In this document: piece by piece, positions 4,877 through 15,388 of the stretch
Layout: the number at the start of each line of letters is the position of its first letter
Position numbering within the stretch: position 1 is the first letter of the stretch
Source: Promethearchaeota archaeon
GTDB lineage: Archaea; Asgardarchaeota; Lokiarchaeia; Sigyniarchaeales; SOKP01
Direction of reading: 5' to 3'
Assembly: GCA_048937405.1 (NCBI GenBank)
Contig: JBHLNF010000026.1
Span: 1 to 15,388 of the forward strand
DNA length: 15,388 nucleotides
Notes under the pieces: model-generated
Told to the model about the DNA's origin: nothing
Database searches by the model: none
The model's input: only the letters and a program-made list of their open reading frames with translations
Made by a program: the position numbers and the translations under genes

Positions 4877-4881
4877 AAAAA
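4877..4881 (-). terminator. Candidate oligo-T terminator of the tRNA gene
   Basis: Minus strand reads CTA-TTTTT immediately after discriminator A73, followed by further T-rich tracts. Confidence 0.4.
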
Positions 4882-4898
4882 TAGTAGCGGGGGTTCGA

Positions 4899-4933
4899 TT
4901 TTCAGTCTGTTGGAAACCAACAAATTAGTTACC
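4899..4933 (-). other. tRNA intron 3 (35 nt, T-loop, position 59/60)
   Basis: GGTAACTAATTTGTTGGTTTCCAACAGACTGAAAA. Strict BHB: T-stem GUUCG/CGAAC, central UUCA/UGAA, bulges AA^G and AA^U, outer GU/AC plus the TGTTGG/CCAACA hairpin. Confidence 0.9.
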
Positions 4934-4946
4934 TTTGAACGAACGA

Positions 4947-4977
4947 ATCTGCCGATCCATCGGTTGTGAAGGATCGT
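4947..4977 (-). other. tRNA intron 2 (31 nt, variable loop, position 46/47)
   Basis: ACGATCCTTCACAACCGATGGATCGGCAGAT. Helix CGATCC/GGATCG, central CUGA/GCAG (3 of 4 pairs), bulges GA^A and AU^U. Removal restores AGAUC. Confidence 0.82.
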
Positions 4978-4986
4978 TCTCAGGGT

Positions 4987-5011
4987 CTCTCTATGGTGTT
5001 TACATGCCATT
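4987..5011 (-). other. tRNA intron 1 (25 nt, canonical position 37/38)
   Basis: AATGGCATGTAAACACCATAGAGAG. BHB-like: outer helix ATGG/CCAT, central CUCA/AGAG with one A-A mismatch, 3-nt bulges UA^A and AG^A, closed by the anticodon stem. Confidence 0.9.
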
Positions 5012-5093
5012 TATGAGCCCTGCGGCATAAACCAGGCTAGCCCACCCCGCTATATAAGCACGTATGAGCTTAAATCCTATGCATTATATCTAA

Positions 5094-14306: not shown

Positions 14307-14459
14307 AACATACTCCCTATTAATATTATGTCTTCTTATTATCGTCTCAAATCGTCATTAATGAAATTAAGCATTCACTAAAAAGAATCTTAATTGAATT
14401 ATCGACTCCGAATACGCTACCCTTATGCAAGCAATCTGAATCTTTCCTTAATTAGACGC

Positions 14460-15388
14460 CAAAACGCCTCCGCTATTTGGTGGATATCTTGGCTTGGGCA
14501 CCGATGAAGAGCGTGACAAGCTGCGATAAGCTCGGGTTAGTCGCAAGAAGACGCTGACCCCGAGATTCTCGAATAGGACATCCGCTTGCGGCCCAATAAT
14601 CCGCAAGATTCCCGGCAGGGAAGGGGAACCCTGGGAAGTAAAACATTTTAGTACCAGGAGGAAAAGAAAACAATAGTGATTCCGTAAGTAACGGCGAGCG
14701 AAAGCGGAACAGATCAAACCGAATCCCTAGGGAAACCTATGGGAAATGTGGTGTGTGGGCCTTGTACGGCCTCTCTAGAGAAGATGAATACCTCTGGAAT
14801 GCTGAGCCATAGAGCGTGATAGCCGCGTAATTATAATCTAGATGGCTGCTGCAAGAGTCCCCGAGTAGTGCGGGATGGTTTTCTCGTACGAATATACCAG
14901 ATACACGCTGGTAAATCTAAATATGTCCCAAGACCGATAGCGCAATAGTAGTGTGAACAAAAGATGAAAAGTAACCCGGAAGGGCTGTGAAAAGTGCTTG
15001 AAACCAAATAGCTTATTAAGGATGCAGCCTGAAAGGACAGATTCTGCATGAATGAGTTCTGGTGACAGAATATCAGAATACAGAGGACTAGGGTCGCATC
15101 ATCAGTCTGGAATCATTGGCCAGGGAGTTTATAGTAGTGGCAAGCTTAAGCGTCTTGCGGCGCGTAGGCATAGGGAAACCAATATTTTTGCAATCTAATT
15201 ATCACATTAGGAAGAATTACTCGTCAAAGGAGGGTTCTGCCTTCCTAAACACGTGTAGCTATTCCTTCTAAGGAATTAGACCAGAAAAATGGTCTTAAAG
15301 GGCCAAAAGTCTCTGCTATAATACCCGAAGCCGGTCGATCTATTCCTGGTTAAGATGAAGTCGTTCGAAAGGGCGATGGAGGTCTGCA
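14460..15388 (+). rRNA. rrl: 23S rRNA, 5' portion (5' end approximate; continues beyond window)
   Basis: Conserved LSU motifs in the expected order: GGTGGAT, CGATGAAG..CAAGCTGCGATAAGC, GGGGAAC..GAAGTAAAACAT..AGTACCAGGAGGAAAAGAAA, AGTAACGGCGAGCGAA, GACCGATAGCG, GGGAAACC and ACCCGAAGCCGGTCGATCTA. Confidence 0.98.

Follow-up and report, generated by a model that had tools for sequence, protein, structure and literature searches.

A triply interrupted initiator tRNA gene in a Loki-type Asgard archaeon, with a variable-region intron whose splicing motif overlaps the anticodon stem

Several archaeal and eukaryotic systems are known in which a single tRNA transcript must lose more than one intron. 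In the Thermoproteales (Pyrobaculum, Thermofilum, and Caldivirga), multi-intron tRNA genes with relaxed splicing motifs are a classic case, credited to Sugahara (2007/2008) and to Marck and Grosjean (2003) in two later papers (PMC4090602, PMC3728597). A 2026 preprint describes heavily interrupted tRNA genes hidden from annotators in other Asgard classes, chiefly the Jordiarchaeia and Atabeyarchaeia, against the background of an (αβ)2 splicing endonuclease (EndA). The red alga Cyanidioschyzon merolae removes three bulge-helix-bulge (BHB) introns in an order set by motif stability and position, as followed by RT-PCR of the intermediates (PMC3728597, PMC9602550). Asgard archaea are reported to have the (αβ)2 type of EndA with an L1 loop (PMC5829648), and experiments on the Aeropyrum pernix enzyme showed that the Crenarchaea-specific loop, Lys44 above all, confers the cutting of relaxed, off-position, and bulge-helix-loop introns (PMC3241643). 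Multi-intron Asgard tRNAs, (αβ)2 EndA, and ordered BHB processing are, in other words, already published.

The locus described here, the tRNAiMet(CAU) gene of a Promethearchaeota archaeon, resembles these systems in most respects. As in the Thermoproteales genes, BHB introns, up to three of them, interrupt the tRNA both at the canonical site and elsewhere, among other places in the variable region and at 59/60; a relaxed motif needs an alternative fold, and the (αβ)2 EndA with a specificity loop is assigned here by homology. Unlike those genes, it sits in an AT-rich Loki-type Asgard genome (29% GC both in the window, the whole 15,388-nt stretch analyzed, and in the 4.47-Mb genome), its introns are not nested, and each is found without the others. 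The Asgard tRNAs of the preprint share with it many introns at BHB-competent sites, concealment from standard finders, repeated intron gain and loss, and a permissive (αβ)2 EndA; the present family is instead of the Promethearchaeia type, and all eight intron combinations occur at one locus. Neither initiator tRNA nor the order of splicing came up in text searches of the preprint. The gene adds a well-documented case to the multiply interrupted archaeal tRNA genes, in the lineage closest to eukaryotes, and reveals no new mechanism. Our main reading, which we hold at a probability of roughly 0.6, is that it is a working single-copy initiator tRNA gene with three endonuclease-spliced introns, the second of which would be reached through a strand swap, and that any order of removal would be a statistical preference.

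Anatomy and genomic setting of the initiator tRNA gene

The 167-nt gene lies on the minus strand (5051..4885) and was reconstructed by hand and by script. BHB geometry, in which each 3-nt bulge is cut behind its second base and 4 bp of helix separate the two bulges, gives exact exon/intron junctions for all three introns. These lie at 37/38, 46/47, and 59/60 and measure 25, 31, and 35 nt; their removal leaves a 76-nt initiator tRNA. Exon 1 (positions 1-37; 5012..5051) holds G26-C27-A28-G29 at 5023-5020, C32-A35 at 5017-5014, and the anticodon at 5015-5013. It is followed by intron 1 at the canonical site (4987..5011; intron strand of the central helix at 4992-4989) and by exon 2, a 9-nt segment from A38 to A46 (4978..4986) that carries C41-A44, the bases contested between two structures, at 4983-4980. 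Intron 2 interrupts the variable region (4947..4977), with its GCAG strand at 4952-4949, and the 13-nt exon 3, U47-A59 (4934..4946), has U54-A57 at 4939-4936. Intron 3 lies in the T loop (4899..4933; intron strand of the central helix at 4904-4901), and exon 4, U60-A73, is read from the sequence at 4885..4898. There is no encoded CCA. Three bases past A73, a run of five T (4877..4881) is likely a transcription stop. The interval that an earlier, sequence-only reading had singled out (5022..4934) corresponds exactly to C27 through A59 of the tRNA.

Once spliced, the sequence is identical to the intron-free orthologues L022 (from a congener), L038, L100, and L120. It displays the initiator traits A1-U72, the three G-C pairs G29-G31:C39-C41, and the anticodon CAU, and the genome contains no second initiator tRNA gene. 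When 134 genomes from this family were searched, the 5′ exon was located once each in 113, with 112 genes complete; the mature sequence is the same in 92 of these 112 (this genome and 91 others).

ARAGORN calls no tRNA in the whole window, and Rfam, in both gathering and E-value modes, detects none in the site region at E up to 10, so that the genome's only initiator tRNA gene is invisible to both annotation tools. A gene that standard finders miss might be a decaying pseudogene or an assembly artefact, an idea that is barely credible here: the genome is rated 100% complete and has no other initiator gene, the exons match those of the 91 other genomes, all three splicing motifs are intact, and the same three introns recur in L067 and L113, one of which belongs to another genus.

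Two further observations concern the setting. With intron detection on, ARAGORN finds only 21 tRNA genes in this genome, rated 100% complete, several of them questionable. Introns that are multiple or at non-canonical sites presumably conceal most of the others, and hidden, interrupted genes are therefore probably the rule in this genome. In addition, a large-subunit rRNA gene begins at 14456 (14456-15388) in this archaeal window. The 14 kb upstream of it hold protein-coding frames instead of a 16S gene, and the rRNA genes of this genome may therefore be unlinked.

Splicing motifs and the exon-intron helix of intron 2

Introns 1 and 3 have both the outer helix (h) and the inner helix (h′) of the strict BHB form. 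In intron 1, the central helix consists of C32-G, U33-A, and C34-G with an A35·A mismatch, flanked by bulges UA|A and AG|A, an inner helix AUGG/CCAU, and the anticodon stem as outer helix. Intron 3, of the strict hBHBh′ type, forms four Watson-Crick pairs (U54-A, U55-A, C56-G, and A57-U) between bulges AA|G and AA|U, with a G-C/U-A inner helix and the T stem as outer helix. Both motifs would build on the normal cloverleaf, with the anticodon stem closing that of intron 1 and the T stem that of intron 3, and would be independent of each other. Their central helices are kept among orthologues much as that of intron 2 is, and the C32-G pair of intron 1 is present in 69/69 distinct versions.

An AGAGAG repeat at the 3′ end of intron 1 (4987-4995) offers two pairing registers with C32-C34. 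The minimum-energy fold picks the non-BHB register, with a 1-nt bulge at A38, so that in the models the cutting-competent register of intron 1 is a minor conformer too, at a cost of 4.4 kcal/mol.

Intron 2 is built differently. Its central helix pairs exon bases C41-G, U42-A, and G43-C, plus an A44·G mismatch, with the intronic GCAG at 4952-4949, just as the sequence-only reading had proposed; introns 1 and 2 accordingly have three Watson-Crick central pairs each, with A·A or A·G beside the 5′ bulge, and the earlier contrast with the strict intron 3 holds. The bulges are GA|A and AU|U, and a 6-bp inner helix joins CGAUCC (4976-4971) to GGAUCG (4958-4953). The sole possible outer helix, C39-G49 and A38-U50 beyond a C40·C48 mismatch, is present as first described, and its pairing probability in the folding ensemble is below 1e-5. 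Because h′ (6 bp, covarying) is present and no usable outer helix is, intron 2 belongs to the relaxed HBh′ class. The spliced sequence confirms that C41-G43 also form part of the anticodon stem that closes the intron 1 motif.

The intronic GCAG copies G26-C27-A28-G29, the natural partner of A44-G43-U42-C41, down to the 26·44 purine-purine contact. The central helix of intron 2 therefore mimics the upper part of the anticodon stem by strand exchange. This intron is found in 23 genomes as 19 distinct sequences. In an alignment of 18 distinct copies, C41-G and G43-C are retained in 18/18 and U42 faces A or G in 18/18; the fourth position is A·G in 16 and a true A-U pair in the other 2. Only two changes of GCAG occur among the orthologues, UCAG (which gives A44-U) and GCGG (which gives U42·G), and each keeps or improves the pairing. 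Since the exon side never varies, the support for the central helix is conservation and not covariation. The inner helix, by comparison, shows compensatory changes at 8 of 9 pairs in the orthologue alignment; 85.9% of its cells are paired versus 31-46% in slid controls, and its covariation score is 0.458 versus 0.200 for shuffled alignments, with 0 of 500 shuffles as high. By this alignment evidence the intron 2 helix is more than chance, and the kept central pairs together with the inner-helix covariation argue that an exon-intron helix competing with the anticodon stem is under selection. A competing hairpin within the intron, CCGA-UGGA-UCGG, had also been proposed. It does exist (4963-4952, minus strand), but with a pair probability of ~0.01 versus 0.86-0.97 for the inner helix it is negligible, and it is absent from the intron 2 orthologues.

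Folding ensembles were computed with ViennaRNA at 20 and 37 °C. They give the anticodon stem of the full precursor a probability of ~0.99 and the central pairs of intron 2 one of ~5e-4; in these models the intron 2 motif is never the ground state and always a minor conformer. One could suppose that the enzyme, by virtue of relaxed specificity, simply cuts intron 2 in its ground-state fold, while the anticodon stem is intact and no exon-intron helix exists, in which case the conserved GCAGA would have some other function, for example in ligation or in the excised intron. The dominance of the ground state in the modelled ensemble favors such a route, as does the ability of (αβ)2 enzymes with the specificity loop to cut bulge-helix-loop substrates (PMC3241643). 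That fold, however, has no 4-bp helix between the sites, the 5′ site falling 1 nt before and the 3′ site 6 nt after the inner helix. Judging from the enzyme-RNA complex (PMC3241643), such spacing would misfit the fixed distance between the two active sites of EndA even for a bulge-helix-loop substrate. Both natural GCAG changes, moreover, preserve or strengthen the pairing with C41-A44. We consider direct cutting of the ground state decidedly improbable.

In the reading that we prefer, BHB geometry at 46/47 would force the use of exon bases 41-44. Cutting of intron 2 would require the upper three pairs of the anticodon stem to open and swap partner to the intronic GCAG, an exchange that would apply to every precursor, with or without introns 1 and 3.

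Intron combinations among relatives and the order of splicing

All eight presence/absence combinations of the three introns occur at this locus among the 112 family genomes, which are related and not independent samples, so that our claim is limited to the existence of the eight states. Intron 1 alone is the state of 43 genomes and introns 1 and 3 together that of 28; introns 1 and 2 are combined in 11, intron 3 stands alone in 10, and introns 2 and 3 are paired in 8. Eight genomes have no intron, three have all of them (this genome, L067, and L113), and one, L018, has intron 2 only. Intron 1 is thereby present in 85/112 and intron 3 in 49/112. Each of the three genes with all introns has an intron-2 subtype of its own, whose nearest copies come from genes without intron 1 or 3, and the intron set therefore changes between close relatives. 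Such an eight-state mosaic on a near-invariant 76-nt product points to frequent, precise loss or gain of introns, perhaps by deletion or by conversion from RNA that was spliced fully or in part. As a side observation, intron 1 falls into length classes of about 21-32 and 47-51 nt among the orthologues (loci L003-L123).

These combinations bear on the proposal, made in the sequence-only reading, that mutually exclusive motifs impose a fixed series of refolding steps and make the gene a control point for initiator tRNA supply. Several facts speak for it. Introns 1 and 2 do overlap at C41-G43, the genome has a single initiator gene, and ordered removal of BHB introns has been demonstrated in C. 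merolae, while in some archaea the last nested intron forms its motif only after the others are gone (PMC3728597). In the unconstrained model of this gene, intron 1 also makes the intron 2 motif ~4 kcal/mol harder to form. The relatives contradict an obligatory order: since all eight states occur, each intron must be spliced without the others, and genes for the same mature tRNA carry intron 2 alone, with intron 1 only, or with intron 3 only, so that intron 2 is independent of both neighbors.

The folding calculations lead in the same direction. Nearest-neighbor models penalize 3-nt bulges and ignore protein, tertiary structure, modifications, and growth temperature, which makes the absolute costs that follow unreliable. 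Forcing the core motifs costs 4.4 kcal/mol for intron 1 and 3.2 kcal/mol for intron 3, the same whichever other introns are present. For intron 2, the free model gives 1.8 kcal/mol without intron 1 and 6.1-6.2 kcal/mol with it. Because this model offsets the intron 2 motif by pairing the 5′ strand of the D stem non-natively with the anticodon loop, the calculation was repeated with the acceptor, D, and T stems fixed in their native form, which gives 5.1 kcal/mol without and 6.6 kcal/mol with intron 1. The effect of intron 1 is consequently model-dependent, 1.5 kcal/mol with the body native versus 4.3 kcal/mol in the free model. When intron 1 is deleted in silico from ten other natural genes with introns 1 and 2, the cost shifts by no more than -0.5 to +1.5 kcal/mol (body native). 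No motif was found to form only after the removal of another intron, the free-model effect of intron 1 on intron 2 ranging from 0 to 4.3 kcal/mol. Across 22 natural intron-2 genes, the cost of the intron 2 motif is always positive, at 4-8 kcal/mol.

Whether the three sites can form together depends on how the motifs are defined. The strict motifs of introns 1 and 2 cannot coexist, because both compete for C41-G43, and to that extent the earlier claim of exclusivity stands. Minimal motifs can coexist: two outer-helix pairs of intron 1, G30-C40 and G31-C39, can persist directly beside the central helix of intron 2, and the two cores, when formed in the same molecule, show a coupling of only +0.4 to +1.5 kcal/mol. 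The further conflict once seen between introns 2 and 3 falls away, as it rests on the optional lower helix of intron 2 with its vanishing probability. Nor do C41-G43 become available once intron 1 is gone, since they stay paired in the mature anticodon stem. According to the models, the real constraint would be a local strand swap for intron 2 in every context.

Regulation fares no better. With 8 of 112 relatives intron-free and 92 of 112 sharing the mature sequence, the introns at this locus are dispensable and labile, unlike a conserved regulatory device, and the regulatory reading is therefore without support. A fixed, regulated series of steps is on balance unlikely. Most probably the order of splicing reflects a statistical preference and is neither an obligatory pathway nor a means of regulation. 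A soft preference is plausible from the models, in which introns 1 and 3 would tend to leave early and intron 2 late, because introns 1 and 3 form their motifs more readily and, as we infer, 5′-to-3′ transcription would act likewise. The locus shares with C. merolae the presence of three BHB introns in one tRNA gene and differs from it in that the alga is a eukaryote whose motifs fold independently and whose anticodon intron leaves last, whereas here the models place the variable-region intron last.

A more speculative pair of ideas may be added, to which we give little credence. The strand swap could act as a kinetic gate, the precursor that retains intron 2 being the long-lived last intermediate; separately, the eight-state mosaic could stem from gene conversion with reverse-transcribed, partly spliced intermediates. 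If the former were true, the conversion rate of the intron-2-retaining precursor would set the supply of the cell's only initiator tRNA. If the latter were, the genomes would be a fossil record of splicing intermediates that have existed.

Whatever its origin, the series forms a natural test set: across 112 genomes, one near-invariant 76-nt tRNA comes with all possible combinations of three homologous introns, and the matching endonuclease genes are identified. It is suited to measuring how relaxed, cloverleaf-disrupting introns are recognized and how far neighboring introns help or hinder.

The predicted splicing endonuclease

The genome has exactly two matches to PF01974, the tRNA-intron endonuclease family. 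The encoded proteins, EndA α (197 aa) and EndA β (200 aa), both contain PF02778 and PF01974; their reading frames lie at L001:1453-2046 (minus strand) and L002:1210-1812 (plus strand). EndA α aligns end to end with the α subunit of the Aeropyrum pernix enzyme (3P1Z_B, E 2e-33), and close relatives of it come from Promethearchaeota/Promethearchaeia (Loki-type) metagenome genomes. Its Y138/H146/K177 lie opposite the A. pernix triad Y125/H133/K164. In the segment INKPRLEYF, aligned with VEKPRGADF of A. pernix, K55-P-R57 stands opposite K44-P-R46 of the Crenarchaea-specific loop. EndA β is closest to the subunit of the Methanocaldococcus jannaschii homotetramer (1A79, E 7e-26); compared with that protein it has Ser at the position of the catalytic His and retains the Tyr and Lys, so that the full Tyr/His/Lys triad is found in one subunit only, α.

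The pair resembles the A. pernix enzyme (3P1Z/3AJV; PMC3241643) in the full-length alignment of α, the triad, the K-P-R loop, and the presence of a second, non-catalytic paralogue. It differs from that enzyme in that β is nearest to M. jannaschii 1A79 and, as known from its sequence, has lost only the His. By homology, the two paralogues would form an (αβ)2 heterotetramer with a broad substrate range, and in the proposed mechanism this two-subunit enzyme, with the Lys/Arg specificity loop on its catalytic subunit, would cut all three introns. The sequence-only reading had predicted a broad-specificity EndA and asked about its architecture and specificity loop. The α and β genes and the specificity-loop Lys and Arg encoded in this genome agree with that prediction and indicate an (αβ)2 type.

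A last regularity concerns the bases at the cleavage sites. The 3′ bulge starts with A in 69/69 distinct versions of intron 1, in 19/19 of intron 2, and in 36/38 of intron 3, and all 5′ cuts come after an A (A37, A46, and A59). This may reflect a sequence preference of EndA, or shared ancestry of the introns.
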